Below, in pieces: positions 25,092 to 47,637 of a stretch of 64,000 bases of DNA. The position numbers were made by a program, and so were the translations under genes. The notes under the pieces were generated by a model. That model was not told the origin of the DNA and searched no databases. It saw only the letters and a list, made by a program, of their open reading frames with translations. How positions within the stretch are numbered: position 1 is the first letter of the stretch; every line of letters begins with the position of its first letter. Source of the stretch: Nitrospirota bacterium. Lineage in GTDB: Bacteria; Nitrospirota; UBA9217. The stretch covers positions 608,001 to 672,000 of the forward strand of contig CAWFSF010000002.1 in NCBI GenBank assembly GCA_963818475.1, read 5' to 3'.

Positions 25092-25130
25092 AAAAAGACG
25101 AAAGGGAGCTATCGGCTCCCTTTGTCTTTT
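25092..25130. terminator. Bidirectional intrinsic terminator
   Basis: AAAAAGACGAAAGGGAGC-tatcg-GCTCCCTTTGTCTTTT between convergent genes. Confidence 0.75.
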
Positions 25131-25173: not shown

Positions 25174-28100
25174 TCAGAAGAGCCAGAACACCCTGTATCT
25201 TTTCTTATGCTCAGGCGTGGTCTCCACGCCGAACAGCCCCCCCAGGACCGCCCAGTATGAGCCCTTGCCCTCTTCCGACTCAGTATAATAGAAGGGATTG
25301 AACTCAAAGATCGAGGACGTAGGCGTAGCGCTCTTCCTGATGACCCTCCAGAGGAACCGGAAATCGCTCGTCTCGGCGTCTTTCCGCTCGTAGGAAATGA
25401 CCTTCCAGAGGAAGCCCGTCTGTTTCACGAACTCTCCCTCGCTGCTGTAGGAAAACAGGAACCATAGCACGGACCAGCTCATGGCGTCCTGTTCCTTGTC
25501 AAAGGAATAGGAATAGAGCGGGAAGAGCCTGTGCTGCTCCAGAGTTCCTCTCCTGTTGTAGTGGAAAAGACTGATCTTCGGCGGCACCAGCCACAGAAGG
25601 GACAGGTCGGTCTCATCACGCGTCTCATCCCGTTCATACCAGTGAAGCAAGAGCGTCAGATCTCGTTGCCTGTTCTCGTCCTTTTCCTGATGCCACCACA
25701 CGGGAAAAACCGTGGACAGGGAGGCAGTCCCCTCCCGCCTGTGATAGTACAGCAGGAACTGGTCGAGTTCCACGTCCCGCATCGGATCCCGTCCGAAGCG
25801 GATGAGCGGCCAAAGGAGCGCGTGTTCCTGATAGGTCCCCTGTTCATGCCAGCGATAGATCGGCCAGACGTACAGCGTGTTCGTTCCCGGATCACGCTGA
25901 TGGTAATAGAACGGCGCGAGCGTCAACAGCGAGTCCGCGTCGCTCTGGCTGTAGTAGAGCGGGATGAGCCAGGTCTTCTTCTCCGGTCCCTCCACTTTCC
26001 TGCCGTACAGAGGGAAGACAGCGGTGAACGAGTCATTTTGTTCTCGCTTATGATAGTAGAGTAGAAACTGACTGAGCGTGATGTCTTTCACCGGGTCCCG
26101 TCCGAAGCGGACCAGCGGCCAGAGGAACGCATGCTCACGATAGCTCCCCGCTTCGTGCCACCGGTAGATCGGCCAGACGTACAGCGTGTTCGCTCCCTCG
26201 TCGCGTTGATGATAATAGAACGGCGCGAAGGTCAGGAGCGAGTCTTCGTCCTCGTAATGGTAGTAAAGCGGGAAGAGCACCTGCTGCTTTCTTGCTCCCG
26301 CTATCGTGCTCCAGAAAAGAGGGAACACCGTGGTGAACGATCTGTCCTGTTCCCGCTTGTGATAGTAGAGCAGGAACTGGTCGAGCTCCACGTCTTTCTC
26401 ACCGTCCTTTCCGAAGCGGATCAGCGGGTAGAGTGCCCCGTATTCACGGTAGCTCCCCTGCTCCTTCCTGCTGAAGAGAGGCCACAGATGGAGTGAATCG
26501 CTTCCCGGCTCCTTGCGGTGATAATAGAGCGGAGCGATGGTCAGGAGCGAGTCTACGTCTTCACGGTGGTAGTAAAGCGGGAAGAGCACCTGCTGCTTTT
26601 TTGCTCCCGCTATCGTGCTCCAGAAAATAGGAAACACCGTGGTGAACGATCTGTCCTGTTCCCGCTTGTGATAGTAGAGCAGGAACTGGTCGAGCGCGAT
26701 GTCTTTCTCCCGGTCCCGTCCAAAGCGGATGAGCGGGTAGAGGGCCCCGTATTCGCGGTAGCTTCCCTGCTCCTTCCTGCTGAAGAGAGGCCACAGGTGG
26801 AGCGTGTCCTTGTCCGCTTCCCTTCGATGATAGTAAGGCAGCACAGGGAGCGCGAGCGTCAACAGCGAGTCTTCGTCCTCGCGGTGGTAGTAAAGCGGGA
26901 AGATCACCTGCTGCTTCTTTGCTCCCGCTATCGTGCTCCAGAAAAGGGGAAAGACCGTGGTGAACGCTTTGTCCTGTTCACGTTTATGGTAATAGAGCAG
27001 GAACTGGTCGAGCGCGATGTCTTTCTCCCGATCCCGTCCGAAGCGGATGAGCGGCCAGAAGGAAGCGTGCTCGGTATAGGTCTTTTCGCGGCGCAGGCTG
27101 TAGATCGGGAAGAGGACCAGCTTTTCTTTATCCGGCTCCTTGCGGTGATAGTAGGGCAGCACCGGCAGCGCGAGCGTCAACAGCGAGTCCGCGTCGCTCC
27201 GGTGGTAGTAGACCGGGAACAGCCAGGAGAGCTTTTGCTCGTTCTCCACCCGCCTGCTGTAGAGCCAGAGCAGGGCGTCCTGCTGCGAGAGTCCGGCGCG
27301 GCTGTCGCGCGTATCCATGAAGAGCGGGCCGAGGACGAAGGTTTTTTTATACCAGTCGCCTTCCCGGTGTACCCCGTAGAAGGGAATGAGGTGCCGATAG
27401 CTGTTTTCCCCTGAGTCGAAGGACCAGTAGAGCGGGAAGAAAACAGTATAGGCATTGTCCGGCCTGGAGCCGTGCCAGTAGAACGGAGGGATCCTGACCG
27501 AGCGCGTTGTGGGCGAAGCTTCATAATGAAAGAACGGCCAGAGCACGTCCCACCCGGTGAGCTGTTGCTCCTGGTCCGCATATCGGGAGTACAGGGGGAA
27601 GAGGAGGAAATGCCGCGAAACAACGTCGCCGCGCTTGTACTCGCCGTAGAACGGGAAATAGTAGGTGAATGCTGACTGCTGCTCCTTGTCCTCTGCATTG
27701 AAGTACAGCGGAAAGACGGTTTTAAAGCTGAACTGCTCGCTTCGGTACCGCAGGTAGACCGGGACCCCGACGGTGATGCCGAAGTCCTTCCTTTCGTAGT
27801 CATAGTAGAGCGGCAGGAGCGTCGTGAACGCGCTCTCTTCCGACTTCCGCTTCATGTAGAGCGGGGTGATGGCCGAAAACTCGACCGTGGGGCTGTCGTA
27901 CTGTAGGTAGAAGGGAAGGAACGTGCGCAGCCTTGTCGTCCCCGTTACTGACGAGAAATAGGTCGGGAAGATATACCGGAAATGTCCTTCAGGCTCCCTC
28001 CTGCTGTGATAGAGAGGAATGATCGTCCTCACGCTGGTATCAGGCGTTTCGCGGTGGTAGTAAAGCGGCGCGACGATCCGCATCGACTCCTCCGGTGTTT

Positions 28101-29679
28101 TCCGTCCAAAATAGATCGGAAGCAGAAGGTCCCATGCAGCCTGGGGTTTTCTCGATGAGAACCAGAGGGGGAAAAGAGTGGTGAAGGCTTTGTCCTGTTC
28201 CCGTTTATGATAATACAGCAGGAACTGGTCGAGTTCGAGGTCTTTCTCCCGGTCACGTCCGAAGCGGATGAGCGGCCAGAGCACCCCGTGCTCGCGATAG
28301 CTCCCCTTTTCATACAGCCGGTAGAAGGGCCAGAAGTAGAGCGAGTCACTGCCCGGCTCCTTGCGGTGATAGTAGAGCGGCGCAAGCGTCAACAGCGAGT
28401 CTTCGTCTTCACGGTGGTAGTAAAGCGGAAAAAGCACCTGCTGCTTCTTTGCTCCCGCTATCGTGCTCCAGAAAAGCGGGAAAACCGTGGTGAATGATTT
28501 GTCCTGTTCGCGCTTATGATAGTACAGCAGGAACTGGTCGAGTTCGATGTCTTTCTCCCGGTCTCGTCCGAAGCGGATCAGCGGGTAGAGCGCCCCGTAT
28601 TCGCGGTAGCTCCCCTGCTCCCGCCTGCTGAAGAGAGGCCACAGATGAAGTGATTCGCTTCCCGGGTCCTTGTGGTGAAAGTAAAGCGGCGCGATGGTCA
28701 GGAGGGAATCCGCGTCGCTCTGGCTGTAGTAGAGCGGGAACAGCCAGGTCTTCTTCTCCTGGCCTTCGACCTTCCTGCCGTACAAGGGGAAGACTGCGGT
28801 GAACGAGTTGTTTTGTTCGCGCTTATGATAGTACAGCAGGAACTGAGCGAGCGCGATGTCCTTCACCGGGTCCCGCCCGACGCGGATCAGCGGATAGAGT
28901 GCCCCGTATTCGCGGTAGCTCCCCCGCTCCTCCCTGCTGAAAAGAGGCCACAGATGAAGTGAATCGCTTCCCGGCTCCTTGCGGTGATAGTAAAGCGGCG
29001 CGAGCGTCAGGAGGGAATCCGCGTCGCTCTGGCTGTAGTAGAGCGGGAGCAGCCAGGTCTTCTTCTCCTCGTCTTCGACCTTCCTGCCGTACAAGGGGAA
29101 AAGGGTGGTGAACGAGTTGTTTTGTTCGCGCTTATGATAGTACAGCAGGAACTGAGCGAGCGCGATGTCCTTCACCGGGTCCCGTCCGACGCGGATCAGC
29201 GGATAGAGGGTCCCGTATTCGCGGTAGCTCCCTTCCTCCTGCCTGCTGAAGAGGGGCCACAGGTGCGTATAGGAGTAGTCTTTACCCTCGCCTGCCCAGT
29301 AAAGCGGAAAAAAAACGCTGTAACTTCTCTCGGGAGAGCTCTTCTGCCAATAGAAGGGGAACAGGTGAGACGACGAGTGCTCCCCTTCCCGCTTGTAAAC
29401 GCCGAGGGGCCAGAGCACGCTGGTCTTGCGAAATTCCCTCGCCGGATCGCTTTCTGTTGCAAAGATGAAATACCCGAAGGAATACCTGGTCCAGCTGTCC
29501 CTGCGCTCGTAATGGTACAGGGAAAAGAGCGCGTCCGTCTCCGCCCGGCCTTGCTCCTCACTGTGATAAAGCAGCGGCCACGCCGTGATCGGACGCGACA
29601 CCTCCTCGGCGCCCGCACCGGATGCGATGGCCAGAACGAACGTGACGATGATGAAGAGCAGCAGAAATGCTTTTTTCAT
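25174..29679 (-). CDS. Giant exported aromatic/Pro-rich repeat protein of unknown function (1501 aa)
   Basis: Signal peptide ending AGA; recurring (F/W/Y)P(L/F)(Y/F) motifs; nine 103-aa units; C-terminal WLF. Confidence 0.85.
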   Translation of the reverse strand: MKKAFLLLFIIVTFVLAIASGAGAEEVSRPITAWPLLYHSEEQGRAETDALFSLYHYERRDSWTRYSFGYFIFATESDPAREFRKTSVLWPLGVYKREGEHSSSHLFPFYWQKSSPERSYSVFFPLYWAGEGKDYSYTHLWPLFSRQEEGSYREYGTLYPLIRVGRDPVKDIALAQFLLYYHKREQNNSFTTLFPLYGRKVEDEEKKTWLLPLYYSQSDADSLLTLAPLYYHRKEPGSDSLHLWPLFSREERGSYREYGALYPLIRVGRDPVKDIALAQFLLYYHKREQNNSFTAVFPLYGRKVEGQEKKTWLFPLYYSQSDADSLLTIAPLYFHHKDPGSESLHLWPLFSRREQGSYREYGALYPLIRFGRDREKDIELDQFLLYYHKREQDKSFTTVFPLFWSTIAGAKKQQVLFPLYYHREDEDSLLTLAPLYYHRKEPGSDSLYFWPFYRLYEKGSYREHGVLWPLIRFGRDREKDLELDQFLLYYHKREQDKAFTTLFPLWFSSRKPQAAWDLLLPIYFGRKTPEESMRIVAPLYYHRETPDTSVRTIIPLYHSRREPEGHFRYIFPTYFSSVTGTTRLRTFLPFYLQYDSPTVEFSAITPLYMKRKSEESAFTTLLPLYYDYERKDFGITVGVPVYLRYRSEQFSFKTVFPLYFNAEDKEQQSAFTYYFPFYGEYKRGDVVSRHFLLFPLYSRYADQEQQLTGWDVLWPFFHYEASPTTRSVRIPPFYWHGSRPDNAYTVFFPLYWSFDSGENSYRHLIPFYGVHREGDWYKKTFVLGPLFMDTRDSRAGLSQQDALLWLYSRRVENEQKLSWLFPVYYHRSDADSLLTLALPVLPYYHRKEPDKEKLVLFPIYSLRREKTYTEHASFWPLIRFGRDREKDIALDQFLLYYHKREQDKAFTTVFPLFWSTIAGAKKQQVIFPLYYHREDEDSLLTLALPVLPYYHRREADKDTLHLWPLFSRKEQGSYREYGALYPLIRFGRDREKDIALDQFLLYYHKREQDRSFTTVFPIFWSTIAGAKKQQVLFPLYYHREDVDSLLTIAPLYYHRKEPGSDSLHLWPLFSRKEQGSYREYGALYPLIRFGKDGEKDVELDQFLLYYHKREQDRSFTTVFPLFWSTIAGARKQQVLFPLYYHYEDEDSLLTFAPFYYHQRDEGANTLYVWPIYRWHEAGSYREHAFLWPLVRFGRDPVKDITLSQFLLYYHKREQNDSFTAVFPLYGRKVEGPEKKTWLIPLYYSQSDADSLLTLAPFYYHQRDPGTNTLYVWPIYRWHEQGTYQEHALLWPLIRFGRDPMRDVELDQFLLYYHRREGTASLSTVFPVWWHQEKDENRQRDLTLLLHWYERDETRDETDLSLLWLVPPKISLFHYNRRGTLEQHRLFPLYSYSFDKEQDAMSWSVLWFLFSYSSEGEFVKQTGFLWKVISYERKDAETSDFRFLWRVIRKSATPTSSIFEFNPFYYTESEEGKGSYWAVLGGLFGVETTPEHKKRYRVFWLF
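25700..29270 (-). repeat. Intragenic 309-bp tandem repeats (4 + 5 copies)
   Basis: QFLLYYH anchor at 29147, 28838, 28529, 28220, 26999, 26681, 26372, 26063, 25754. Confidence 0.9.
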
Positions 29680-29776: not shown

Positions 29777-30421
29777 CTACTGCAACGCATCCGCGATCGC
29801 AGGACTGTTCAAAAGCTCCTCGATCTTTCCCTTGAATGCCCGGGGGACCGCTTGCCTGGCATGCGCCGGGGGATTCCAGGAACTTCCTCCCAGATCGTCC
29901 TTTCCCTGGATCCTTTTTTCCGCAAGAACCCTTCCGTCCTGGTCGTAGATCTTCATGGTAACGTCGTAGCTCAAGGCAGTATTCATGTAGGTATCGCTTT
30001 TCCATTCGTTCAAAATCAGGAGGATCAGGCGTTCGGCCCGAACAGCCTTCAGTTTTTCCAGAGCGGCGGCTTGATCGTCGTCCTGCGTCACAGCGACGGG
30101 CACGGCTTTATAGCCTTTCTTTGCCAGCGATGTCACAAGCGCCTCGGTCATGTCCTTTGCCAGCGGTTCTCCGCTCGCGGTCGTAATATTGAAAGGATTG
30201 CCGAAGCCGCCGCGCTGAAGGCCGACGAAATCGGGGGTCTTCTCCCGGTCCTTTACGTATTGCCGCTGATCGTGAGCCGCAACGCCCACAGCCTTGGTGC
30301 CTGAAACGGTAAAGTCAGCGACCACATTGCTGTAGCTATGCCGGTTCCCGACAGCGCACCCGGCGGAGAAGGCCAAAACGATCACGACAACGGCATATTG
30401 AACCTGCAAAAAGATCTTCAT
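29777..30421 (-). CDS. Lipoprotein of unknown function (possibly YajG-like)
   Basis: Lipobox SAGC; VGLQRGGFGNPF; AGGAG RBS. Confidence 0.7.
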   Translation of the reverse strand: MKIFLQVQYAVVVIVLAFSAGCAVGNRHSYSNVVADFTVSGTKAVGVAAHDQRQYVKDREKTPDFVGLQRGGFGNPFNITTASGEPLAKDMTEALVTSLAKKGYKAVPVAVTQDDDQAAALEKLKAVRAERLILLILNEWKSDTYMNTALSYDVTMKIYDQDGRVLAEKRIQGKDDLGGSSWNPPAHARQAVPRAFKGKIEELLNSPAIADALQ

Positions 30422-30855: not shown

Positions 30856-31149
30856 TTATGCTGATTTGAGATGGCGCTCCTTCTCCTCGGTGTAAGCGGC
30901 CTTGCCCGCCTCAATGGCGTCGGTGAGGGCTGTCGTGCTCTCCTTGTACAACTCCTTGCCTCTTTGAACGGTAGAAGCGATCTTCTCCTTCGTCTTCTCG
31001 GCAAGGTCCTTTATGTCCTCCCGTGTTTCTCTTCCCGATTTAGGCGCCAACAGGAGCGCAATACCTGCTCCCACGAGGCTGCCAACCAGGAAGGGGATTA
31101 CCACAGAGCTTCCTTTTCTTCCAACTTCCATTTCTTCTTTCATTTTCAT
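30856..31149 (-). CDS. YtxH domain protein
   Basis: FLVGSLVGAGIALLLAPKSGRETREDI. Confidence 0.9.
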   Translation of the reverse strand: MKMKEEMEVGRKGSSVVIPFLVGSLVGAGIALLLAPKSGRETREDIKDLAEKTKEKIASTVQRGKELYKESTTALTDAIEAGKAAYTEEKERHLKSA

Positions 31150-31541
31150 TTCTCCTTTCCTTCTTTTTTGAGATCCTTTACCAGGGTTGCTACTCCGGTT
31201 CTTATACCTGCCTTGAGGCTCGCAAAGTCTGCCCTTGCTTCAGCGCCGGCCGTGTCTCTTATGAAGCCGTACAATGTCTTCACCTCCTTCTGGAGATTGG
31301 CGACCGACGAGGTAATCCCCCGCACGTCTTCGGTCACGACCGTGACATTATCGCTGATCTTTTTGAAGTTCTCGAGCGTTACCCTGAGCTCAGCCAGCAT
31401 TGCCAGCAGGTCCCCTGACGAGAGCGTGATGAACTGCCGGACAGCAGCTACCGTGCGATAGTTGCTCACCTGGTAGGCGATCGAGACTACGGCGTAGATG
31501 ATGAAAACAACCACTCCGGCGTTTAAAAGCACGTTATTCAT
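31146..31541 (-). CDS. DUF948/YtxG-like membrane-anchored coiled-coil protein
   Basis: N-terminal TM then helical region; stop overlaps ytxH start. Confidence 0.6.
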   Translation of the reverse strand: MNNVLLNAGVVVFIIYAVVSIAYQVSNYRTVAAVRQFITLSSGDLLAMLAELRVTLENFKKISDNVTVVTEDVRGITSSVANLQKEVKTLYGFIRDTAGAEARADFASLKAGIRTGVATLVKDLKKEGKEK

Positions 31542-31681
31542 GATCACCTCTGGTTCTCGAAATTGCGCGCCGATACCGCCGGCGGACCTCCTGCCAGCAG
31601 GTGTTTTTCTGATAAACACGAACGAAGGCCATGCTTCAACGAGATCGTCCGGAGCTGCCCCTTTAGTCTCTCAGGACCACG

Positions 31682-31978
31682 CTATCCCGTTTTTTTGAAC
31701 TTGTTCTTTGCTTCCGTAAAAGCATGCTTGAACTCGTCCCAGGCTGCATCCACGCCTGCTGTCATGGATTCCCAGGCCTCATTGCCCGCGCCTTTCAGTT
31801 CATGGAGCTTTTTGTTGACGGCTTCCCGCTTGGTCTTCATGTCGAGGATCCGGTTCTCATAGGTGACCCTGGCGTCTGCCTTGGCAGCGCGCGCCTTGAA
31901 CTCCAGTTCGTCGATCTTTCTCGACCACTCCTTAAGCTGGGCAGTCATCTTGTCAATATACTCTTCTCTGTTTTTCAT
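31682..31978 (-). CDS. Small coiled-coil stress-response-type protein
   Basis: EEYIDKMTAQLKEW...EAWESMTAGVDAAWDEFK; GGAGG RBS. Confidence 0.8.
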   Translation of the reverse strand: MKNREEYIDKMTAQLKEWSRKIDELEFKARAAKADARVTYENRILDMKTKREAVNKKLHELKGAGNEAWESMTAGVDAAWDEFKHAFTEAKNKFKKTG

Positions 31979-32167
31979 GACCGGTGCCTCCCTCCTTCGA
32001 AGCAGCGCTCTTGTGGTCCTTGTTTGCTGCCTCCGACTTTCTGCTGCTTGTACTTCTAATATAGCACCGGTGGAACAATGCGGCCGGGAAATCCGACAGC
32101 CCTCAATGCCAGTCAGCCGGATATTTTCATCATAAAGTACTAGACTTTTTTTTTGCCTCCATTGCTT

Positions 32168-32196
32168 GTAGGGGCAGGTTTTAAACCTGCCCTTAC
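32168..32196. repeat. GTAG-type REP palindrome
   Basis: GTAGGGGCAGGTTTTAAACCTGCCCTTAC. Confidence 0.65.
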
Positions 32197-32240
32197 CCAT
32201 GCGGCAGTCGCTTCACACAGCGGAGCTTTGCCCCCGAAAT

Positions 32241-32269
32241 TTGACTCAGCAAAGTACGCGTGATACTAT
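32241..32269 (+). promoter_or_regulatory. Sigma70 promoter 7 nt before the ybbA ATG (leaderless)
   Basis: TTGACT-17 bp-TACTAT. Confidence 0.65.
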
Positions 32270-32276
32270 TGCATCC

Positions 32277-32958
32277 ATGCCGATCCTTGAGACGCGCAGC
32301 ATCTCCAAGACCTATACTGCAGGCGAGCCGGAAGATCGCGGTGCTCGACTCGGTCTCCCTTGCGGTGGCAGACGGCGAGTTCCTCGTGGTCCAGGGCGAG
32401 AGCGGCAGCGGTAAGTCGACGCTGCTGTCGATCCTGTCGGGCTTGGACAGCGTGGACAGCGGCACGGTCCTGATCGACGGCAGGGACATTACCGATTGCT
32501 CGGAGGACGATCTGGCGCCGCTCCGGAACAGCTTCTTCGGCTTCGTGTTCCAGTCCTTCCACCTCGTCCCGTCGCTCACGGCTTTGGAGAACATCATGTT
32601 CCCCGCCGAGCTGCGGGGTGACGTCCGCGCTCAGGAAAAGGCGGAGGAGCTGCTGCGCCGCGTGGGGCTGTCGGACCGCGGAGCAAGCTTCCCCCACCAG
32701 CTCTCGGGCGGCGAGAAGCAGCGCTGCGCCATCTGCCGCGCGCTGGTGAACGGCCCGCGGATCATCTTTGCCGACGAGCCCACGGGCAACCTCGATTCCA
32801 TGAACGGCGCCGCCGTGCTCGATCTGCTCCTGGAGCTCCACCGCGAGCGCAACACCACACTGGTCCTGGTCACGCACAGCCGGGAAATAGCGGCAAAAGC
32901 CGGGCGCGTCGTGCTGCTCCGCGACGGACGGATCGCTTCGGGCAGCGGCCATGCGTAA
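32277..32958 (+). CDS. ybbA: ABC transporter ATP-binding protein (YbbA/LolD-like); frameshift near 32325
   Basis: MPILETRSISKTY then GESGSGKST, LSGGEKQR, FADEPTGNLD. Confidence 0.8.
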
Positions 32959-35443
32959 GATCCCCCTGGTCCGGCGCCAGCTCACCGGTTCCCGGCACCA
33001 GGCAGCGATCTTCGTTCTCTGCGTGGCCCTCTCGCTCGTGACCCTCGTCTCGCTCAGCGGGTTCAGCCAAAGCGTCCACTCGTCTTTTCTGAAGGACGCC
33101 CGTGCGCTCCATGCCGCCGACATCATCATCCACGCCCATTCCCCTTTCTCGGAACCGCTGCGGCGGCAACTGTCAGTCATGGAAAAAGAGCGCGTAGTCG
33201 CCAGCGCGCGCGTTCATGAGTTTTACTCGATTGTCCGGACTCCAATTGGTGATGCGTCGCTCCTGGCGAACCTGAAGGCCGCCGATCCGGGCTATCCCTT
33301 CTACGGGAGCGTGCAGCTTGCGTCGGGAAGGCAATTCAACGACGTCCTGAGGCCTGGCAGGATTATCGTTGAGCAGGCATTGCTCGACCGGCTTCACCTG
33401 AAGATCGGCGACCGGGTCAGCATAGGCAGGGCGGCTTTCACGATCAGCGATACTGTTCTGATGGAGCCTGACCGGCCGGTCAACTTTTTCTCGCTCGGCC
33501 CGCGCGTCTTCATCCCTGGCAGCGAACTCGCCTTTCTTGATCTCGTGGGCAAAGGAAGCCGCGTGAACTACACCATCCTCGTCAAGGTCATGGACCAGAA
33601 GGACCTGGACAGGATCGCGCTCCGCCTCAAGGCCGCTTCCCTGCCTGACCGTGAACGGGTCGAGACCTACCGGACCGCTGATTCAGGAGTTAAGCGCTTC
33701 TTTGACAATTTTCTTTTTTTCCTGAACCTCATCGGTATCTTTACGCTGCTTTTGGCAGGCATCGGCATCCAAAGCTCGCTCACCGCCTTTCTGAAAGAAC
33801 AGGAGCGGACCATTGCCGTCATGAAGGCCGTCGGCGCCGGAAGCTTCTTCATCATCAGGAATTATTTTCTCCTGGTCTCGGTCCTCGGTTTGATCGGCAC
33901 GCTCACAGGGCTCGGCGCAAGCGTGCTGCTCGGGCGGTTTCTGCCCGGCCTGTTCCAGGGCCTCCTTCCCGCCAGCATCGAACTTACCATATCAGGGGCG
34001 GCAATTGCCGAAGGGGTCGTTCTCGGGTTTGTGGTCGTGGTCCTCTTTACGATCATCCCCCTGCTCAGGCTCAAGGAAGTGAGGCCGCGGGCCATCTTCA
34101 ACAAGGTCGAACAGGAGGGACGGAAGGCCTACACCTGGCTGCTTGCCGGCGCCATTGCTGTTTTCTTTTCCGGCATGGTGCTCTGGCGGCTGCAGGAGGT
34201 GCGGACCGGGGCCTATTTCGTGCTCGGCGTGGCGACGCTCATTCTCGCCTCCCTTGCCTGCGCTGCCGCCATCCTCCGGCTTCTGCGGAAGCGCCGCCCA
34301 GGGAACCTCGTGCTGCGTCAGGCATTGAAAGGGCTGTTCCGGCCGCAGAACGCCACCCGCGCCATCATGGTGACGCTCGCTGCTTCGCTTGCCGTGATCT
34401 TCTCGATCACCCTCGTTGAAAAGAACCTTGATGCGACCTTTGTCAGCTCCTATCCCCCTGACTCGCCGAACGTTTTTTTCATCGACATCCAGCAGGCGCA
34501 GCAAAAAAGCTTTGCAGAAGAGCTCGGCATGCCTGCTATTTTTTATCCCCTGGTCAGGGGGACGGTCATGGCGATCAACGATGTCACGATCGACCGCGAA
34601 CAGGAGCAAAAGAAGCGGGGCGACAACCTCGGCCGCGAGTTCAGCCTCACCTATCGGGACAGCCTGCTGGATGACGAGCGGATCGTGTCGGGGAAATCGC
34701 TCTATCAAAAGGACTGGCAGGGGCCGCAGGTCTCGGTCCTCGACACGGTGGTCAAGATGCAGGATATGAAGGTAGGCGACAAGATAACCTTCCGCATCCA
34801 GGGCATCCCGGTCGAAGCGCGGATATCGAGCATCAGGACGAGGACAAAGGCGTCGCTCCAGCCCTTCTTCTACTTTGTCTTTCCCGCTGAGGTGCTGCAG
34901 GACGCGCCCCAGACGCTCTTCACCGCCTTGCGCGTCGAAAAGGGGCGCATTCCCCTGCTCCAGAACCGCATCGTAACGGCCTTCCCGAACGTGAGCGTCA
35001 TCGATGTGACCGAGACCATCGCCTCCTTCTCGAAGATCATGGCGCGGCTTTCGACGATCGTCAACTTCTTCACCCTCTTCAGCGTCGTGGCCGGCATCCT
35101 GATCATCATCAGCTCCGTCTTCGCCACGCGCTACACGCGGATCCAGGAGGCGGTCTTTTACACCATCCTCGGCGCCCGGGGAAGGTTCGTGCTTGCGGTC
35201 TTTGGCGTGGAAAGCCTGCTTATCGGGCTTGCCAGCGCCGGCATCGCCCTGGCGCTTGCCCAGACGACCGGCTGGATCGTCTGCACCTATGCGCTCGAGA
35301 TCGAGTACCAGCCGTTCATCGGCACGAGCCTGCTCATGGCGCTTTCGACCATGCTCATGGTCGTTGTCGTGGGCCTGGGGGCAGCGGTCCCGATCCTGCG
35401 CCAGAAACCGGCGGCGTTCCTGCGGGAGCAGGCGGAGGAATGA
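32951..35443 (+). CDS. ybbP: FtsX-like ABC permease (YbbP-like)
   Basis: Two FtsX permease halves; YPFYG, PNVFFIDIQ, REFSLTY. Confidence 0.8.
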   Translation: MRKIPLVRRQLTGSRHQAAIFVLCVALSLVTLVSLSGFSQSVHSSFLKDARALHAADIIIHAHSPFSEPLRRQLSVMEKERVVASARVHEFYSIVRTPIGDASLLANLKAADPGYPFYGSVQLASGRQFNDVLRPGRIIVEQALLDRLHLKIGDRVSIGRAAFTISDTVLMEPDRPVNFFSLGPRVFIPGSELAFLDLVGKGSRVNYTILVKVMDQKDLDRIALRLKAASLPDRERVETYRTADSGVKRFFDNFLFFLNLIGIFTLLLAGIGIQSSLTAFLKEQERTIAVMKAVGAGSFFIIRNYFLLVSVLGLIGTLTGLGASVLLGRFLPGLFQGLLPASIELTISGAAIAEGVVLGFVVVVLFTIIPLLRLKEVRPRAIFNKVEQEGRKAYTWLLAGAIAVFFSGMVLWRLQEVRTGAYFVLGVATLILASLACAAAILRLLRKRRPGNLVLRQALKGLFRPQNATRAIMVTLAASLAVIFSITLVEKNLDATFVSSYPPDSPNVFFIDIQQAQQKSFAEELGMPAIFYPLVRGTVMAINDVTIDREQEQKKRGDNLGREFSLTYRDSLLDDERIVSGKSLYQKDWQGPQVSVLDTVVKMQDMKVGDKITFRIQGIPVEARISSIRTRTKASLQPFFYFVFPAEVLQDAPQTLFTALRVEKGRIPLLQNRIVTAFPNVSVIDVTETIASFSKIMARLSTIVNFFTLFSVVAGILIIISSVFATRYTRIQEAVFYTILGARGRFVLAVFGVESLLIGLASAGIALALAQTTGWIVCTYALEIEYQPFIGTSLLMALSTMLMVVVVGLGAAVPILRQKPAAFLREQAEE

Positions 35444-35480
35444 AATAAGAAGCTGAATACTGCTCAAACCGGAAAGCATA

Positions 35481-35590
35481 TTCTCGCGGAGGCGCGGAGA
35501 TCGCGGAGAACGTCAACGACTGGGAATATGGTTTAAAACTAAAACAGGAGAGATTGTTTTTCTCCGCGTACTCTGCGTCTCCGCGTGAGA
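35481..35590. repeat. REP-like inverted repeat with CGCGGAG tandem arms
   Basis: TCTCGCGGAGGCGCGGAGATCGCGGAGAA ... TTCTCCGCGTACTCTGCGTCTCCGCGTGAGA; related half-copies near 6314 and 24642. Confidence 0.6.
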
Positions 35591-35643
35591 CGCCTTTTGG
35601 TATGCGCTTTTTGTTTCGGCTTGTCCTGGTTTGGAGGAAAATA

Positions 35644-36315
35644 ATGAAAATCTCTTTGATCCGTCAGACATACCTCATTCTTGCCCTGTGCATGCTGCTC
35701 GCTGGCAACGCAGCGCAGAGCGAGGCAGCGCCTTCTTCAGAGCCGCGGTCCAAAGGCATCATCGTTGCCGTAGGCGACAGCCTCACGGCCGGACTCGGCG
35801 TGAACGAAGAGGAAGCCTATCCAGCGCTTCTCGAAAAAAAGCTGCGGCAAGCGGGATATGACTGGAAGGTCGTCAATGCGGGCATCAGCGGCGAAACGAG
35901 CAGCGGCACGCTCTCGCGCATCAACTGGGTGATGAAGCTCAGGCCGGACATCGTTATCCTCGAGACCGGGGCCAATGACGGCTTGCGCGGCATTGATCCG
36001 GCCGTGACCAGGAAGAACATCGACGAAACGATCCGCATCCTGAAGCAGCAGAACGTAACGGTGGTCCTTGCCGGCATGCAGATGGTCAGGAACCTGGGCC
36101 AGAAGTTCACGCAAGACTTTGCGGACATCTATCCCTCTCTGGCAAAGAAGCACGGCCTGATCCTGGTCCCCTTCTTTTTACAGGGTGTGGCCGGCAACCC
36201 ATCCCTGAACCAGGCTGACGGTATCCATCCCACGGCAGAGGGCTACCGCATCATAACGGAAAAGATCTACCCCTTTGCACGCAAGGCGATCGATGGGAAC
36301 AAGAAGCGCTTGTAG
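35644..36315 (+). CDS. tesA: GDSL/SGNH arylesterase (TesA-like)
   Basis: GDSLTAG, NAGISGET, GANDGLRG, DGIHP. Confidence 0.88.
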   Translation: MKISLIRQTYLILALCMLLAGNAAQSEAAPSSEPRSKGIIVAVGDSLTAGLGVNEEEAYPALLEKKLRQAGYDWKVVNAGISGETSSGTLSRINWVMKLRPDIVILETGANDGLRGIDPAVTRKNIDETIRILKQQNVTVVLAGMQMVRNLGQKFTQDFADIYPSLAKKHGLILVPFFLQGVAGNPSLNQADGIHPTAEGYRIITEKIYPFARKAIDGNKKRL

Positions 36316-38294: not shown

Positions 38295-39158
38295 GTGAAA
38301 CGATATAAACCAGTCATTCTAATTGTCCTGACCGTGCTGGTCGCTCTGGCCACGAGTTTAATGACCTACCGATGGCTTAAGGCAAGGTCCGCCTATGGCG
38401 CCCAGGGAACGGGGACCGTAAACGTGGCAGTGGCAGTAACGGACCTGGACTGGGGAACGATCATAAAACCGGAGATGGTAAAGATCGTTCCGTTCCTGAA
38501 GGGGAGCCTGACCTCCGGTTTCTTTCCGGACCCGGCCTCTGTTGCGGGACGCGTTGTCATCACCCCTGTAAAGGCAGGTGAACCCATATTTGCATCGCGC
38601 CTGGCCTCTTCGGACGTGACGCGCGGCGGAGTTGCCGCCGTGATATCCGAAAACAAGCGGGCCATGGGCGTGAAAGTTGACAAAGTGAAGGGTGTATCGG
38701 GCTTCATCCATCCGGGAAACAGGGTGGACGTTGTCGCCACCTTCAAGCCGGCGCATTCAAGGGCGCCGGTAACCATGACCGTGATCGAAAATGTCCCTGT
38801 TCTCGCAGTGGGCACGGAAACGGAGCTCAAGAACAAGCAGGAAAAACCCTCTGATGTGGATGTGATCACGCTCGAAGTGACGCCCGAGGAGGCCGAAGTG
38901 CTCGCCCTCGCCGCGGCGGAAGGGAAGCTGCAGCTCTCCCTCAGAAATTTCAGCGATACTAAAAATGTCTCTACGAGCGGGGCCACCGTGCAGTCGCTCA
39001 TCAGTCTTTTAAGCGGCAAAGACGCTGCGCCCGTGCGAAGAACAGTCCGTCGGGGAAAAGGCTCGGACGTAAAACCAGCCTACTCCGCATACGCAAAGGT
39101 CCAGTTGATAGAAGGCCAGAAAGTTCAGGACGTGAACTTCAAGAAAAGAAGGGAGTGA
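38295..39158 (+). CDS. cpaB: Flp pilus assembly protein CpaB/RcpC
   Basis: SAF domain; GVSGFIHPGNRVDV, TLEVTPEEAE, LSLRN. Confidence 0.92.
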   Translation: MKRYKPVILIVLTVLVALATSLMTYRWLKARSAYGAQGTGTVNVAVAVTDLDWGTIIKPEMVKIVPFLKGSLTSGFFPDPASVAGRVVITPVKAGEPIFASRLASSDVTRGGVAAVISENKRAMGVKVDKVKGVSGFIHPGNRVDVVATFKPAHSRAPVTMTVIENVPVLAVGTETELKNKQEKPSDVDVITLEVTPEEAEVLALAAAEGKLQLSLRNFSDTKNVSTSGATVQSLISLLSGKDAAPVRRTVRRGKGSDVKPAYSAYAKVQLIEGQKVQDVNFKKRRE

Positions 39159-40603
39159 ATAGGGTCATGATAAAAAGCGCGCGCCGCGGGGTTTGTGTAA
39201 CCGTCTTTATAATTGCTTTGGCATACAGCGTCCTTGCCGGTCAGGCCGGGGCGAAAGAGTCCGCAATCAAGCTCGATACGACAACACCGCAAAAAATAAG
39301 CCTTATGGCGGGAAAATCCCTCGTCATCGAGAGCCCCATGGCGGTAAAGAGAGTTTCCCTGGCCGCACCCGCGTTAGCGGACGCCATCATACTCAGCACC
39401 CGGCAGATCTATCTTACCGGGAAAGCGGCGGGCATGACCAATCTGACCCTCTGGGAAAACGATGACAATTTTACGACCTTCGACCTCGAAGTGTATCCGG
39501 ACATGGTGCGCCTCAAGGAGAAGCTCCATGAAATACTTCCCCAGGAGGAGAACATAAAGGTTTCCTACTCCCACGATTCGATCATTCTTTCGAACACGAT
39601 CTCGAATGCAGCCAACCTCTCGCGGGCGCTGGCCGTGGCCGAGCCTTTCGGCAAGGTGGTCAACCTGCTCGAGGTGGGAGGCGTCCAGCAGGTGATGCTC
39701 GAAGTGAGGGTCTCCGAGGTGCAGCGAAGCACCATGAAGAAGCTCGGCATCAATTTCGGCGGGGTGGGGGCAAGCGGAAAACAGTTCGGCGTTTCCCTGC
39801 TCGGCAACCTCACCAGCATCGGACGCGAGTTTCCGGCGGGATCGGAGGCGATACGTGGTCGCCCCGGGAAATTTCAATGTGACCTCGAGTGTGAACGGCA
39901 TCTTCCGGTTCCTGCATGACGGCGCACCTGGACCGGCTTCATAGACGCCCTGCGGGAAGAGGGCTTGCTCACCGTCCTTGCAGAGCCGACGCTCACCACC
40001 CTGAGCGGCCAGATGGCGAGCTTCAACGCCGGCGGCGAAGTGCCGATCCCCGAATCCGGCGGTCTGGGCACGACAACTATCACCTACAAGAAATTCGGCG
40101 TGGGGCTCAACTTTACCCCGACGGTCCAGAGTGACGGCAGGATCTCGATGCAGGTAGCGCCGCGGGTGTCGGAACTCGATTTCACCAACGCCATCCAGTC
40201 GCAGGGCTTCCTGATCCCGGCCTTCACGGAGCGTGAGGTCTCCACGGTCATCGAGCTCGGCGACGGCCAGAGCTTCGCCATAGCAGGGCTTTTAAGCAAC
40301 AATGTGACCGAAGTGGTCTCCAAGTTCCCGGTTCTCGGCGATATTCCGATCCTCGGGGCGCTGTTTAGAAGCAGCTCTTTTAGAAAGAACGAGAGCGAAC
40401 TGGTGGTGATCGTCACGCCCCATCTGGTAAAACCGCTCGACATGAGCAAACAAACGCTGCCGACGGACAAATACAGCGACCCGGGCGACTTCAAGTTCTA
40501 TCTTCTGGGCGACCTCTCGGGAAAACCGAAGGAGCGCGCCTCTTCCGTGCCGGTCGGCAAAAAGGGTTTTGACGGCGAAGTGGGCCATATCGTTCTGCAG
40601 TAG
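39155..40603 (+). CDS. cpaC: Tad secretin CpaC/RcpA (two frameshifts near 39850-39930)
   Basis: QQVMLEVRVSEV; AEPTLTTLSGQMASFNAGGEVPIP; PVLGDIPILGALF; ELVVIVTP. Confidence 0.9.
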
Positions 40604-40694
40604 AACAGGCGGTGTTCTGCGCTTTCGGTATCGGACTTCATATTGCGGTACAACCAGGAAACGACAAACTGCTTTTCGGATGCGGGAGGAAGAG

Positions 40695-41006
40695 ATGCAA
40701 AAAAAATATTATGCAACAGTCGTTGTCTTGATCATGCTGGCTACGGGCGGGTGCGGCCATTACGGAGCACTGGAAGAGGATTACGGCAAATCGTTCAACC
40801 AGGCGAAGGCCGGTCAGATCCTGAACCCCCAGGCCTCGAAGAACCTGCAGCCCGTTACCGGGCTTTCCGGCGAGGCTGCGGCGGCGAGCGAGGCAAAATA
40901 TCTTCAGAGCTTCGGCAAGACCTCTCAGAAGCCGGCCTCGAAGAGTTTCGTGGTGCCGGTGATTCCCGGAGGAGCAGGAGCGGGACAAGATGCGTACGGT
41001 AAATAG
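40695..41006 (+). CDS. Tad-associated small lipoprotein
   Basis: TGGC lipobox-like; YGKSFNQAKAGQILNP; GGAGG RBS. Confidence 0.7.
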   Translation: MQKKYYATVVVLIMLATGGCGHYGALEEDYGKSFNQAKAGQILNPQASKNLQPVTGLSGEAAAASEAKYLQSFGKTSQKPASKSFVVPVIPGGAGAGQDAYGK

Positions 41007-41430
41007 AGAAAAAGGCGCCTCGGCCGTAGAGTTTGCTCTGGTGTTGCCGGTGCTCATGCTGGTCCTCTTCGGGATCATCGAGTTCGGATTTATCCTCTAC
41101 GACAAGGCGGTCATCACGAACGCGAGCAGGGAGGGTGCCCGAAAAGGTATAGCCTTCCGCCAGGACGCCACCGGCATTCTCGCCGTGTCGGAAACGGAGA
41201 TCACGAGCACAGTTGCCGGCTATACCGGGACCTATCTCGTCTCGCTCGGAAGCGTACTACCCGCACCCGTGACAAACGTTTCGGGAAATTGCTCGATTGC
41301 GAACAGTGCTCTTACCGTAACGGTGTCCTATCCCTATACGTTTTTGGTGCTGCCGAGCTTTGCCTCCAGCCTGACCGGCGGCATCATGTTGAATGCGGTG
41401 ACCGTGATGAATTGCGAATATCAAAATTAA
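40990..41430 (+). CDS. tadE: TadE-like pseudopilin
   Basis: KGASAVEFALVLP...GIIEFG...NASREGAR. Confidence 0.9.
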   Translation: MRTVNREKGASAVEFALVLPVLMLVLFGIIEFGFILYDKAVITNASREGARKGIAFRQDATGILAVSETEITSTVAGYTGTYLVSLGSVLPAPVTNVSGNCSIANSALTVTVSYPYTFLVLPSFASSLTGGIMLNAVTVMNCEYQN

Positions 41431-41445
41431 TGACCGGAAAATGCT

Positions 41446-42742
41446 ATGAAAAAACAACCAATGATCGCTGACGAATCCGGCGGTGTGGTGATCCTGGTCG
41501 CCCTCATGCTTGTCGTCCTCCTGGGCATGACGGCGCTTGCCATCGACATCGGACACCTTATGGTAGTCCGGAACGAACTGCGCAACGCCGCTGACGCCGG
41601 TGCGTTGGCGGGTGCGAGCAGGCTCTATACCGCTACCACAGGCACCGGCTTTATCATCAATCCCGAAACGAATGACGTGGCCGCCGCAGCTGCCATGGCA
41701 AATTCGAGCGACGGCGCTCCTGTGGAGGCCCCGTCCGATTCGGCTATCCAGAAAGGGCACTGGTGCTTCACCTGTCCCGCTGACCCTGCCGACCCGACGG
41801 GCGAAAAGGGTTTTTTCACAGCGAACGACACGGCAAGCACCTATACAATGAACAGTTTTGACTGGCTGACGGTCGACGCCGATACGAGCTATGTAAACGC
41901 CGTACGTGTCGTTGCCAGCCGCGGTTCGGCAGCGGCATACTTTGCAGGCATCTTCGGCTTCAGCAGCTTTTCGCTGAACGCCGAATCAGTCGCCTGGCTG
42001 GGCTTCGCCGGGTCGAACTTCACCGCCGACGCGCCCATCGCCATCTGCATAGAAAAAATTGTCAACGCCGACGGCGGTCTCAATTGCAAAACAGGAGTGA
42101 TGTCAAACACGGAAAACGAAACCACTGCATGGACCAATCTCACCCAGGACCCCTGGGAGTCGTCGAGCTCGAGCAGCGTCAACAATCTTCTCGAAAACGA
42201 GGGTGCGGAGCTCTCAAACCATATTCTTAGCTTAGGACCCATGAGCACCACAAACGCTGTGGCGGCCGACGTATTAGCTAACTTCTACGCCCTCTGGCCT
42301 TCAAAGACCCAGACTCTGGAAACTGACGCTGCCGATGATCGAATGCAACGACTCGCCCCCCGGACCAAGCAACAAGGTCGTCGGTGCAGTTAATGTAGAA
42401 ATCTTCTGGATGACAGGAAACGGGGAGGATCCGCACTTTATTGACGTCCCAACAGAGTTTGTGGTCCCGGCCTCATTTGGAACGGAAACGAAATATGAAT
42501 GCCCCTTAACGTGCGACACCGAACCGTGCGCTTCCCAAGCCACCGAAGACGGCCGCAAGCTCTGTTGGCAGAAGTTCCTGAAAGACTTCAAAGTGGTCGG
42601 CAGCGACGATCTGGAAACCGCGGTGAAGGATTACAAGAAAAAGAGCATTTATTTTGCGCCTTCCTGCACGATCGCGAGCGAAGGCAGTTCGGGCGGCGCG
42701 CCGTCGAACGTGCCTGCAAAATATCCAAGGCTGGTGAAATAG
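41446..42742 (+). CDS. tadG: TadG-like pilus tip protein (frameshift near 42320)
   Basis: ALAIDIGHL...ELRNAADAGALAGA; Cys-rich C-terminus ending PRLVK in the second frame. Confidence 0.8.
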
Positions 42743-42752
42743 CGAGGTCAAT

Positions 42753-44057: not shown

Positions 44058-44089
44058 GACTTATTTAAAACGTCTTTGGGAGGTAGGAG

Positions 44090-45463: not shown

Positions 45464-45573
45464 GCAGGACCGCCCTGCTCAGAGGGCGATCCGCCGTTAT
45501 TGTGTCCAGCTGCGTTTATCAGGTACCAGTCAGCCGATGATCGAGATCATCGCAGCAGAGCGAGGTAAGAACA

Positions 45574-46539: not shown

Positions 46540-46620
46540 CGCAATTCGTCCTTTTTGTGACCAAGGCGGTGACGAGGCGGGGTTTTTCTCCGGGACAAGG
46601 AGAGAGAACAGGGCGAAATA

Positions 46621-47559: not shown

Positions 47560-47637
47560 GTATCCGAATGGGCAGCAAGGGCATGCTGGTCTGAACGCCA
47601 GTTGAAGACGTTGTTGACGATAAAGGGGAGCGAAAAA

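Follow-up and report, generated by a model that had tools for sequence, protein, structure and literature searches.

A giant exported repeat protein from a Nitrospirota bacterium is predicted to form a long ribbon of 17-residue beta-hairpins

What kind of protein is made almost entirely of short aromatic and proline-containing motifs repeated along 1501 residues, and what could it do in a bacterial cell? This question is raised by a gene found in the 64,000-nucleotide stretch of a Nitrospirota bacterium contig that was analysed here as a whole (the window). The gene occupies positions 25174..29679 on the minus strand, with an ATG start and a stop codon at 25174-25176, and encodes the beta-hairpin-repeat protein P0001. 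At most 10 more in-frame codons are available upstream of the ATG. The gene is single-copy in its own genome. About 50 nt past the stop codon, a terminator-like hairpin (25101..25123, minus strand), recognized as a consensus match only, has a stem of 9-10 bp, five of them G-C pairs, and then a T-run. In the 97-nt gap upstream of the gene, no clear sigma-70 promoter was found. No sigma-54 promoter was found near the gene either, the whole window containing 5 matches as compared to 10.9 expected.

The first 24 residues (MKKAFLLLFIIVTFVLAIASGAGA; 29608..29679, minus strand), read by eye from the translation, resemble a signal peptide and read as a putative Sec signal. The equivalent segment of a 781-aa homolog (aa 3-17) is modelled as a helix by AlphaFold2 (AF2). 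P0001 has no Cys among its 1501 residues, contains 19.1% aromatic and 25.6% charged residues, and terminates with ...RVFWLF. The terminal Phe could perhaps belong to a truncated hairpin rather than to an outer-membrane sorting signal. The window's own outer-membrane-type protein ends with ...ITWRL, so that no sorting-signal comparison can be drawn from it.

The strict motif [FWYLIV]P[LFIVT][FYWLI] occurs 52 times in P0001. Its spacings (n=51) fall at 17-20 aa in 30 cases and at 33-35 aa in 17 others. Using a unit HMM, 73 units of 17 residues were detected between aa 29 and 1417, representing 83% of the chain, with the consensus ..VLFPLYWH.R.PD. (17 aa) and a Pro at unit position 7 in 60 of them. 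The total would come to about 80 if each of the gaps contained a degenerate unit. In the family, an offset of 17 aa gives the strongest self-similarity in 140 of 246 members, and 17 is also the commonest unit spacing family-wide; therefore, the 17-aa period is not due to chance. The initial annotation had described a signal peptide followed by repeats over almost the whole chain, no Cys and a WLF end, all of which were recovered here. Its repeat was also correct, though its count of about 85-90 units was somewhat high.

A second level of organization is superimposed on the units. Blocks of 103 aa, each made of six units and 50-75% identical to one another, are arranged in two arrays (aa ~121-526 and ~804-1335). 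At the DNA level, they correspond to 309-bp tandem repeats, present in 3.5 copies within 28168-29262 and in 4.3 copies within 25733-27069, in agreement with the six units per 103 aa of the initial annotation. Following the signal-like segment, conserved N-terminal hairpins (aa 25-120, RPITAWPLLY...; 29320..29607, minus strand), with units from aa 29, have an occupancy of 0.94-0.97 in the alignment A2. Array A (aa 121-526; 28102..29319, minus strand) contains about four copies of the 103-aa super-repeat, as judged from self-identity at offsets 103 and 206 and from the 3.5 DNA copies (84% matches). Its part at ~aa 210-500 is a lineage-specific expansion, with A2 occupancy down to 0.02-0.4. Divergent middle hairpins common to shorter homologs come next (aa 527-803; 27271..28101, minus strand), with a unit spacing of 17-20 aa and a pLDDT of 75-97 in model 1; their A2 occupancy is mostly 0.86-0.97 but drops to 0.37 in aa 551-600. 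Array B (aa 804-1335; 25675..27270, minus strand) holds about five super-repeat copies, judged from self-identity and from the 4.3 DNA copies (78% matches). It is expanded at ~aa 850-1250 in a lineage-specific manner (A2 occupancy 0.02-0.18), and two segments with few aligned homologs, aa 903-1050 and 1112-1231, have an AF2 confidence under 50. The chain ends with variant hairpins that make up a conserved C-terminal cap (aa 1336-1501, FEFNPFYY ... WAVLGGLFG ... RVFWLF; 25177..25674, minus strand; pLDDT 80-94). This cap is the best-conserved part of A2, with P1462 invariant and E1459, N1461, L1479, G1480, G1481 and W1499 near-invariant.

P0001 is thereby about twice as long as its ~780-aa homologs, through two tandem expansions of the six-hairpin 103-aa block that coincide with gaps in A2. 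The super-repeat period itself varies among family members (77, 91, 103, 122 aa ...). Moreover, among pairwise indel runs of at least 16 aa, 144 of 280 lie within ±1 of a multiple of 17 as compared to about 49 by chance, the pairs being non-independent. Judged from these sequence comparisons, the architecture is open-ended, length varying by whole units or blocks.

The family comprises at least 3278 clusters at 50% identity and has a patchy distribution, being found in 11 of 301 genomes of the phylum. Hosts include Nitrospirota, Thermodesulfobacteriota, Elusimicrobia, Planctomycetota, Methylomirabilota, Bacteroidota-type MAGs and Leptospira. Hosts with a name come almost exclusively from diderm phyla; a single fragment of 269 aa bears an archaeal label. 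No family member was found on viral contigs, and no relative longer than 2627 aa was found, which is weak evidence. A signal-like hydrophobic N-terminal 10-mer is present in 237 of 281 long members, the last residue is L, F, W or I in 190 of 281, and the median aromatic content is 17%. Lipobox-like patterns, seen in 18 of 292 members, were unconvincing. Neither the 161 shorter matches nor the 10 clusters looked up carried an informative name, source names being "hypothetical protein", as were those of all ESM Atlas neighbours of two homologs.

In Pfam, P0001 matched no family at E<=1 save a spurious FARP match, and no domain was found in the 20 long members tested; PF28462 is listed on the homolog P0002 in a precomputed table. 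A sequence search of the PDB with P0001 gave 0 matches at E<=1. Two candidate matches were discarded as meaningless: a chitinase, the best hit of a PDB profile search (A1; E 1.1), and the LptD profile in one homolog (12.7 bits against a cut-off of 944). The only library model to match P0001 was NCBIfam NF047486 (LA_1737_Cterm, Leptospira), with 76.1 bits (E 2.8e-21, cut-off 60). This score is summed over four repeat stretches, the best of which aligns aa 800-849 to profile positions 13-61 of 158. P0001 does not carry the model as a single C-terminal domain: its C-terminal 168 aa score 26.8 bits and its C-terminal 408 aa 40.8. All nine homologs tested remained under the cut-off (31-52 bits), and a search of the genome with NF047486 gave no match, controls likewise giving none. 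The likeness of P0001 to NF047486, as read from the alignments, is at the repeat level only. Leptospiraceae / Leptospira biflexa genomes do contain distant members, with 8-10 units and a similar hydrophobic C-terminus; no paper was found on LA_1737 or on the family. As for PF03640 (Lipoprotein_15, threshold 24.4 bits), P0001 gave no match, and two of five homologs scored 24.0 and 24.6 bits, through a stretch of 24 residues resembling G.PLY.F..D. Small Lipoprotein_15 proteins are present in relatives and have no sequence relative in the PDB copy searched; in one paper, the PF03640 family is merely listed among unmodelled repeats. The early statement that no family could be recognized thus nearly holds, Pfam being empty while NF047486 does match, through the repeats only.

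To what fold do the units correspond? Covariation was computed from 1903 adjacent-unit pairs of 356 family proteins, and 496 position pairs were ranked. The 12 pairs expected from hairpin ladders (i+j=14 within a unit, i+j=31 between units) all ranked between 1 and 50, and 11 of them in the top 25. Intra-unit ladder pairs ranked 9, 15, 3, 50, 24, 19, 11 and 1, and inter-unit pairs 5, 8, 2 and 20. This signal was reproduced in two random halves of the proteins, and also without the window's clade. Parallel i,i+17 pairs ranked 36 at best. Single mean-field DCA scores peaked at 3.1, no higher than the 3.13 reached with column shuffles, which were exceeded only when the ladders were taken as sets. 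Units that are not neighbours (k=2-7) showed no covariation beyond a register artefact at position 7.

AF2 modelling gave a similar picture. The model of aa 302-1501 contains 104 strands with a mean length of 5.8 residues and no helices, the pLDDT being at least 70 in 772 of 1200 residues. In the confident parts, all 39 units have Pro7 in the turn between two strands. Strands occupy unit positions 1-5 and 9-14 at a frequency of 0.77-1.0, as compared to at most 0.13 for positions 6-8 and 15-16. For the full-length 781-aa homolog P0249, the model has a mean pLDDT of 90.7 and 82 strands, which at 4.8 A per strand would give a ribbon of about 40 nm. The pTM of the AF2 models is only 0.50-0.54. Two independent methods, covariation and AF2, thus support the suggestion made at the outset of a long beta-meander of Pro-turn hairpins with the aromatic turns on one edge.

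Overall, P0001 is very probably a Sec-exported, Cys-free structural repeat protein, modelled as about 75-80 tandem 17-residue beta-hairpin units. In each unit, positions 1-5 would form strand 1 and positions 9-13/14 strand 2. A tight hydrophobic turn (F/W, Pro, L) would occupy positions 6-8, and a polar turn, typically P/G then D/E, positions 15-17. Because adjacent hairpins pair, the chain would form one continuous single-layer antiparallel beta-meander of about 150 short strands. The near-invariant Pro being in the F-P-L turn of each hairpin, all aromatic turns would be on one edge of the sheet and the charged turns on the other. With Pro left out, hydrophobic or aromatic residues account for 64-99% at unit positions 4-10, on both faces, and positions 1-3 and 11-17 are charged or polar. 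One edge of the predicted ribbon is thus greasy and aromatic, the other charged. On a Wimley-White scale, the tip heptad averages -3.0 kcal/mol per unit, as compared to +4.7 for the rest of the unit.

Open single-layer sheets were the best structural matches of the models: the CPAP G-box (Z 10.6-12.7), MORN1 (9.7-10.3) and OspA (8-9.9), with porins at 5-8. A Foldseek-independent search of 48,161 chains gave CPAP 10.9, OspA 10.5 and junctophilin-2 9.3, a Z of about 10 being only modestly over the tool's stated background of 7-8. All Foldseek TM-scores were at most 0.15, so the likeness to the matches is local. The G-box of CPAP/SAS-4 (TCP10 C-terminal) is a solvent-exposed single-layer beta-meander. 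It was matched over 130-164 of its 136-183 residues, but belongs to a eukaryotic centriole protein, has about 20 strands and 2-9% aligned identity, and lacks the aromatic-Pro turn motif; P0001 has no Pfam match to it. MORN proteins (MORN1, junctophilin, radial-spoke) resemble P0001 in having tandem short hairpins in an elongated, purely antiparallel single-layer sheet, a trait visible in P0001 from the covariation ladders, the AF2 strands and the Z values (MORN1 over 152-162 residues; junctophilin-2, Z 8.3-9.3). The MORN unit has 23 aa, with two 6-residue strands, loops of 5 and 6 residues, and GxG and YEGEW motifs. In contrast, P0001 is exported and has about 75 units of 17 aa with a Pro-centred aromatic turn, whereas MORN proteins are cytoplasmic with about 6-15 units; P0001 gave no Pfam match to the MORN profiles (PF02493 / PF07661). 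The RHS / YD-repeat shell (PF05593) gave no Pfam match either, and teneurin YD shells reached Z 6-7.5 with an rmsd of 13-30 A.

Entries of apoB100 occupied Foldseek ranks 1-4 with model 1 (E 1.2e-8), and 9bde_A gave a VIA-align Z of 8.0 (rmsd 4.6 A over 231 residues). This top rank was not reproduced with model 2, for which LRP2 propeller strings lead and apoB100 ranks 21 or lower. The apoB100 beta-belt is a continuous antiparallel sheet of 120 strands, ~61 nm by 4 nm, on a lipid surface. However, its strands average 11 residues and its amphipathicity opposes face to face, as compared to 5-6 residues and edge to edge here. It also has a lipid-transfer N-terminal domain that P0001 lacks. The resemblance to apoB100 is a functional analogy only.

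Gene neighbourhoods were compared across loci. No stable neighbour partner, no envelope partner and no conserved secretion-system gene was found beside the family gene in these loci; synteny with the window was limited to the same-genus locus, and no neighbour was shared in L015-L017. Some lipid-related genes do lie near some members. In the window, 32260-36315 encodes a YbbA/YbbP-like ABC pair and a TesA-like GDSL hydrolase. Among 17 Nitrospiraceae loci with sufficient flank, 12 carry an MFS + acyltransferase + AMP-binding fusion (LplT-Aas-like) immediately downstream, and secreted GDSL hydrolases lie 1.2-2.6 kb away in L034, L046, L049 and L052. This lead failed replication in fresh loci. 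A scan of 15 metagenome loci, 14 of which had flank ORFs (92 in total), revealed no GDSL gene, and no GDSL or YbbP gene lies by the family gene in G123, G149, G188, G210 and G013. The 12 LplT-Aas-positive loci form one related subclade, and the LplT/Aas pair of the window's own genome is on another contig.

How would such a ribbon be used? About 75 Pro-capped aromatic tips in line cannot stay in water, so we propose that the tips dip into a membrane or a lipid surface. Combining the hairpin ribbon with an envelope scaffold is our preferred explanation overall, and a tentative one; we infer the scaffold itself, with its hydrophobic tips in a membrane leaflet or on a lipid surface, at best equally tentatively. 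The aromatic edge would insert into a single leaflet of a membrane of the envelope, the outer membrane being the likeliest candidate, or rest on a lipid surface. Basic residues at unit positions 11-13 would lie level with the head groups, with the acidic turns facing outward. The protein might then act as a long membrane-attached belt or scaffold, like the lipid-borne belt of apoB100 but much narrower. The greasy tip edge, the exported, envelope-type traits of the family and its diderm hosts are consistent with this. What counts against it is the lack of an envelope partner in the neighbourhoods and the soluble nature of the closest matches (G-box, MORN), whose surfaces are buried by self-association or by partner proteins. 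A stricter version, a "beta-comb" with 40-80 Pro-capped aromatic hairpin tips in a single leaflet, would be a new mode of membrane attachment, but we consider it improbable. If true, one chain would line a bacterial envelope membrane with a belt or fence tens of nm in length, comparable to the lipid belt of apoB100 but narrow and anchored by its edge.

A rather unlikely alternative is a soluble, self-associating ribbon that would bury its aromatic edge on another copy or on the other half of the chain, giving a fibre, mesh or spacer in the periplasm or at the cell surface and entering no membrane. Not only are the best structural matches of this type, but MORN1 forms tail-to-tail dimers and meshes, with no lipid binding found in the MORN1 study, and the two homologous arrays of P0001 could pair with each other. 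Simple two-layer pairing would nevertheless leave a greasy surface exposed, because the tip half is hydrophobic on both faces, and no secretion-system gene or partner is conserved beside the gene. Sugars could also cover exposed aromatics, by stacking. Aromatic-rich short hairpin repeats are typical of choline-binding and cell-wall-binding proteins, and SGNH/GDSL hydrolases, encoded near some members, can also act on acetylated polysaccharides. Hairpin repeats binding glycan or cell wall in a choline-binding-like manner are however most improbable here: P0001 has no Pfam match to CW_binding_1 or to any carbohydrate-binding family, the conserved Leu, Pro and Val suit burial rather than sugar stacking, and covariation indicates a continuous sheet rather than separately stacked hairpins.

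Closure of the sheet, either into one giant transmembrane beta-barrel or into a string of shallow 12-strand rosettes, one per 103-aa block, is very unlikely. The rosettes would recall beta-flowers (PF21784-PF21786, Tubby-like clan), since six hairpins make the 12 strands of a six-fold beta-flower. Beta-flowers are described as hairpin petals of short antiparallel strands, with 8, 10 or 12 strands in all. Their loops bear aromatic and basic residues, and an association with membranes or lipids has been proposed for them. The super-repeats of the family vary in length as well. Beta-flowers are however closed shallow barrels of ~96 residues, whereas the AF2 models match open sheets best, and the hairpins of P0001 follow each other without linkers, its length differing from that of homologs by whole blocks. 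No beta-flower family matched P0001 in Pfam at E<=1, PF21786 (Bflower_3) is absent genome-wide at E<=1, and no beta-flower or Tubby entry was among the structure matches listed. With outer-membrane barrels, P0001 shares export, the lack of Cys, aromatic richness, an all-beta antiparallel meander and a terminal Phe, many members ending with an aromatic or hydrophobic residue. However, the predicted strands have about half the membrane-crossing length, the hydrophobic residues form one run around the turn (positions 4-10) instead of alternating along strands, and porins and VDAC (Z 5-7.8) were outscored by open sheets (10-12.7) in both structure searches. The largest known single-chain barrel has 36 strands. 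Among the three shapes originally put forward, the very large barrel is therefore the least supported. We regard as highly improbable a periplasm-spanning lipid conduit, or a lipid-handling accessory with a TamB/AsmA- or LptA-like groove working with lipid-turnover enzymes. LptD and LptF/G do appear among weak structural matches, and the lipid-related neighbours described above would fit, but these neighbours were not retained in other loci, no AsmA/TamB or LptA/LptD family domain matched P0001 in Pfam, and a taco-shaped groove is impossible with 5-6-residue strands.

The architecture of P0001 is thus well supported. The protein represents a very large family of bacterial proteins that lack a name, a Pfam domain in the library used and any sequence relative among the solved structures searched. 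Should the model be correct, its sheet would rank with the longest single-layer beta-sheets put forward for a bacterial protein, with an unusual edge-wise amphipathicity. This would make the family a good target for structural and envelope biology, as well as a natural scaffold for protein design.

The gene at 25174–29679 (minus strand) is a single open reading frame, present in one copy in its genome (4.66 Mb), with a terminator-like hairpin on its 3′ side (25101–25123). Its product, 1501 residues long, begins with a segment that resembles a signal peptide when read by eye and contains 19.1% aromatic and 25.6% charged residues. As stated in the initial annotation, the protein is free of cysteine (0 of 1501 residues) and ends in WLF (RVFWLF). 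A strict aromatic-Pro motif was found 52 times, 47 of the 51 spacings being 17–20 or 33–35 residues. Using an HMM of the 17-residue unit, 73 units were located from residue 29 to 1417, covering 83% of the protein, and 60 of the 73 have proline in their seventh position. Six units make up a block of 103 residues, the copies of which are 50–75% identical. Self-comparison showed two block arrays (residues ~121–526 and ~804–1335), both also visible in the DNA as 309-bp tandem repeats. Motif spacing, unit HMM and block arrays therefore confirm the repetition of aromatic-Pro units, six per 103 residues, that had been read from the sequence. In an alignment with 60 relatives, residues ~210–500 and ~850–1250 were mostly missing from the relatives and the common core amounted to ~780 residues. 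The ortholog in a same-genus relative (locus L002, 7983–12819, 77% identity) is fragmented into four or more overlapping ORFs that differ in frame, and only one 309-bp array was detected in it. This broken ortholog reflects either frameshift errors of long-read assembly or a decaying gene.

The register of the units was derived from covariation in 1903 pairs of adjacent units (34 columns, 356 family proteins), the 496 column pairs being ranked by APC-corrected mutual information. Within units, pairs 1–13, 2–12, 3–11 and 4–10, taken in both units, ranked 9, 15, 3, 50, 24, 19, 11 and 1 of 496; between units, pairs 10–21, 11–20, 12–19 and 13–18 ranked 5, 8, 2 and 20. These ladders persisted in each half of a random split of the proteins and after removal of the window's clade. 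Mean-field DCA recovered the same ladders which, as sets, beat column shuffles in 20 of 20 cases, whereas single scores did not. Turns are thereby placed at F-P-L (positions 6–8) and at positions 14–17. Because consecutive ladder pairs covary on both sheet faces, the family sequences indicate that the units are hydrogen-bonded hairpins rather than beta-arches. Parallel pairs (i, i+17), as a curli-type solenoid would show, ranked 36 of 496 at best.

AlphaFold2 was applied to residues 302–1501 with 99 homologs (model 1). Mean pLDDT was 70.7, reaching 75–97 in stretches covered by homologs and falling below 50 in the lineage-specific expansions. Model 1 contains 104 strands, 5.8 residues long on average, but no helices. 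In all 39 units of the confident regions, the proline sits in the turn that connects two strands, and strand occupancy per unit position agrees with the covariation register. The model of a full homolog of 781 residues (P0249, model 2) reached a mean pLDDT of 90.7 and shows a signal helix followed by 82 strands. The proposed beta-meander of Pro-turn hairpins is thus borne out by the ladders and by the modelled turns.

Relatives comparable in length numbered 339 in a word-indexed search; an exhaustive profile search extended the family to 3278 clusters at E≤1e-3, 1139 of them at E≤1e-30. The 17-residue period runs throughout the family while the super-repeat length varies between members (91, 103, 122 and others). 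Every informative name among the entries looked at, RefSeq included, was "hypothetical protein". Members with a named host come from Nitrospirota/Nitrospira, Elusimicrobia, Planctomycetota, Delta-/Thermodesulfobacteriota, Desulfuromonadales, Methylomirabilota, a Bacteroidaceae MAG, Petrachloros, Leptospiraceae and Leptospira biflexa. The sole non-bacterial label among these entries, a 269-residue fragment (P0279) on a 4.2-Mb contig of a Thermoplasmata archaeon MAG, may be a binning artefact. Within Nitrospirota, the family is scattered, occurring in 6 of 61 near relatives and in 11 of 301 sampled genomes. Neither the giant protein nor 20 long family members matched Pfam, the library being scanned without PF28462. 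The closest full homolog (P0002) bears a precomputed PF28462 label; this entry may already represent the family. The giant protein passes the cut-off of NCBIfam NF047486 (LA_1737_Cterm) with 76.1 bits, only as the sum of repeat matches. The initial statement that no family was recognisable thus holds for Pfam, but has to be qualified for NCBIfam. PDB sequence and profile searches found no solved structure related by sequence. A CxGLLWC motif is conserved directly after the signal peptide in 49 of 292 long members (the Nitrospira clade), where it may staple the first hairpin by a disulfide; the giant protein lacks this motif.

The surroundings are those of an ordinary chromosomal region, with genes for FtsH, FeoB, Fur, chemotaxis, a Tad pilus and PGK, and no neighbour was conserved past genus level among the family loci compared. 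In the Tad/Flp locus (38295–49510), the RcpA/CpaC-type pilus secretin (39155–40603, plus strand) is split into two ORFs, with an in-frame stop behind a short, seemingly out-of-frame stretch; it is a pseudogene or else was assembled wrongly. Immediately upstream of the giant gene, an ORF (29777–30421, minus strand) encodes a lipoprotein-like product of 214 residues (LAFSAGC lipobox), which matched no Pfam or NCBIfam family and has no counterpart in the otherwise syntenic L002 locus. An ORF resembling DUF948 and a stress-response protein of the sll1863 family (31146–32200, minus strand; sll1863 109 bits, cut-off 35) separate these surroundings from a cluster on the opposite strand (32260–36315, plus), 2.6–6.6 kb from the giant gene. 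This cluster encodes an ABC ATPase, matched best by LolD/YbbA in NCBIfam, an 830-residue permease of the FtsX/MacB type, for which YbbP was the best match (260 bits, below its cut-off), and a GDSL hydrolase resembling TesA; its layout is similar to that of the YbbAP-TesA lipid-hydrolase system of E. coli. At 12 of 17 Nitrospiraceae loci, the 12 belonging to one subclade, the family gene adjoins an LplT-Aas-like (lysophospholipid recycling) fusion, starting 16–105 nt past it in most of the 12. At these loci (9055–12591 in L026, and 11 others), the fusion protein of 1129–1181 residues combines an MFS transporter with an acyltransferase and an AMP-binding enzyme. GDSL hydrolases lie close to the family gene at four loci. 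In a fresh metagenome sample, none of 92 flank ORFs, which came from 14 of the 15 scanned loci, was a GDSL hydrolase, and the lipid theme was not reproduced in five further genomes either. A lipid-gene neighbourhood was therefore not upheld as a common theme in these samples.

Model 1 was compared by VIA-align with Foldseek's best 953 chains. Among these, open single-layer sheets ranked first: the CPAP/SAS-4 G-box (Z 10.6–12.7), MORN1 (9.7–10.3), OspA and engineered OspA (8–9.9), junctophilin-2 (8.3) and apoB100 (8.0, rmsd 4.6 Å over 231 residues). Teneurin shells (6–7.5) and porins/VDAC (5.8–7.2) scored lower. A scan with model 2 that did not depend on Foldseek and covered 48,161 chains agreed with this ranking (CPAP 10.9, OspA 10.5, MORN proteins 8.6–9.4, porins at most 7.8). 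Foldseek likeness itself was local only (TM ≤0.15) for both models, and its leaders differed, being apoB100 for model 1 and LRP2 propeller strings for model 2.

Over 2755 distinct units, positions 4–10 (Pro aside) are 64–99% hydrophobic or aromatic, as compared to 8–39% at positions 1–3 and 11–17. The two sheet faces differ little in hydrophobic fraction (0.54 and 0.46). Therefore, the contrast runs across the width of the predicted ribbon, which has one greasy and one charged edge. Basic residues are most frequent at position 13, acidic residues at positions 14 and 16. Tip heptads of the giant protein average −3.0 kcal/mol, as compared to +4.7 for the rest of the unit (Wimley-White scale). 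The greasy aromatic edge would have to be buried. We tentatively favour its burial in lipid, either within a membrane leaflet or at a lipid surface, because the tip half is hydrophobic on either face, the proline takes a backbone NH out of the buried turn, the aromatic residues are followed by a basic collar, and this exported protein occurs in diderm bacteria. The main rival is self-association, which the likeness to sheets of the G-box and MORN type would suggest by analogy with G-box fibrils or MORN dimers; we consider it only a little less likely. Closed barrels or beta-flower-like rosettes have little support and appear improbable. Whichever way its edge is buried, the models indicate that the giant protein adds a new and very long form to the single-layer sheets built of beta-hairpin repeats, and it belongs to a large uncharacterised family.
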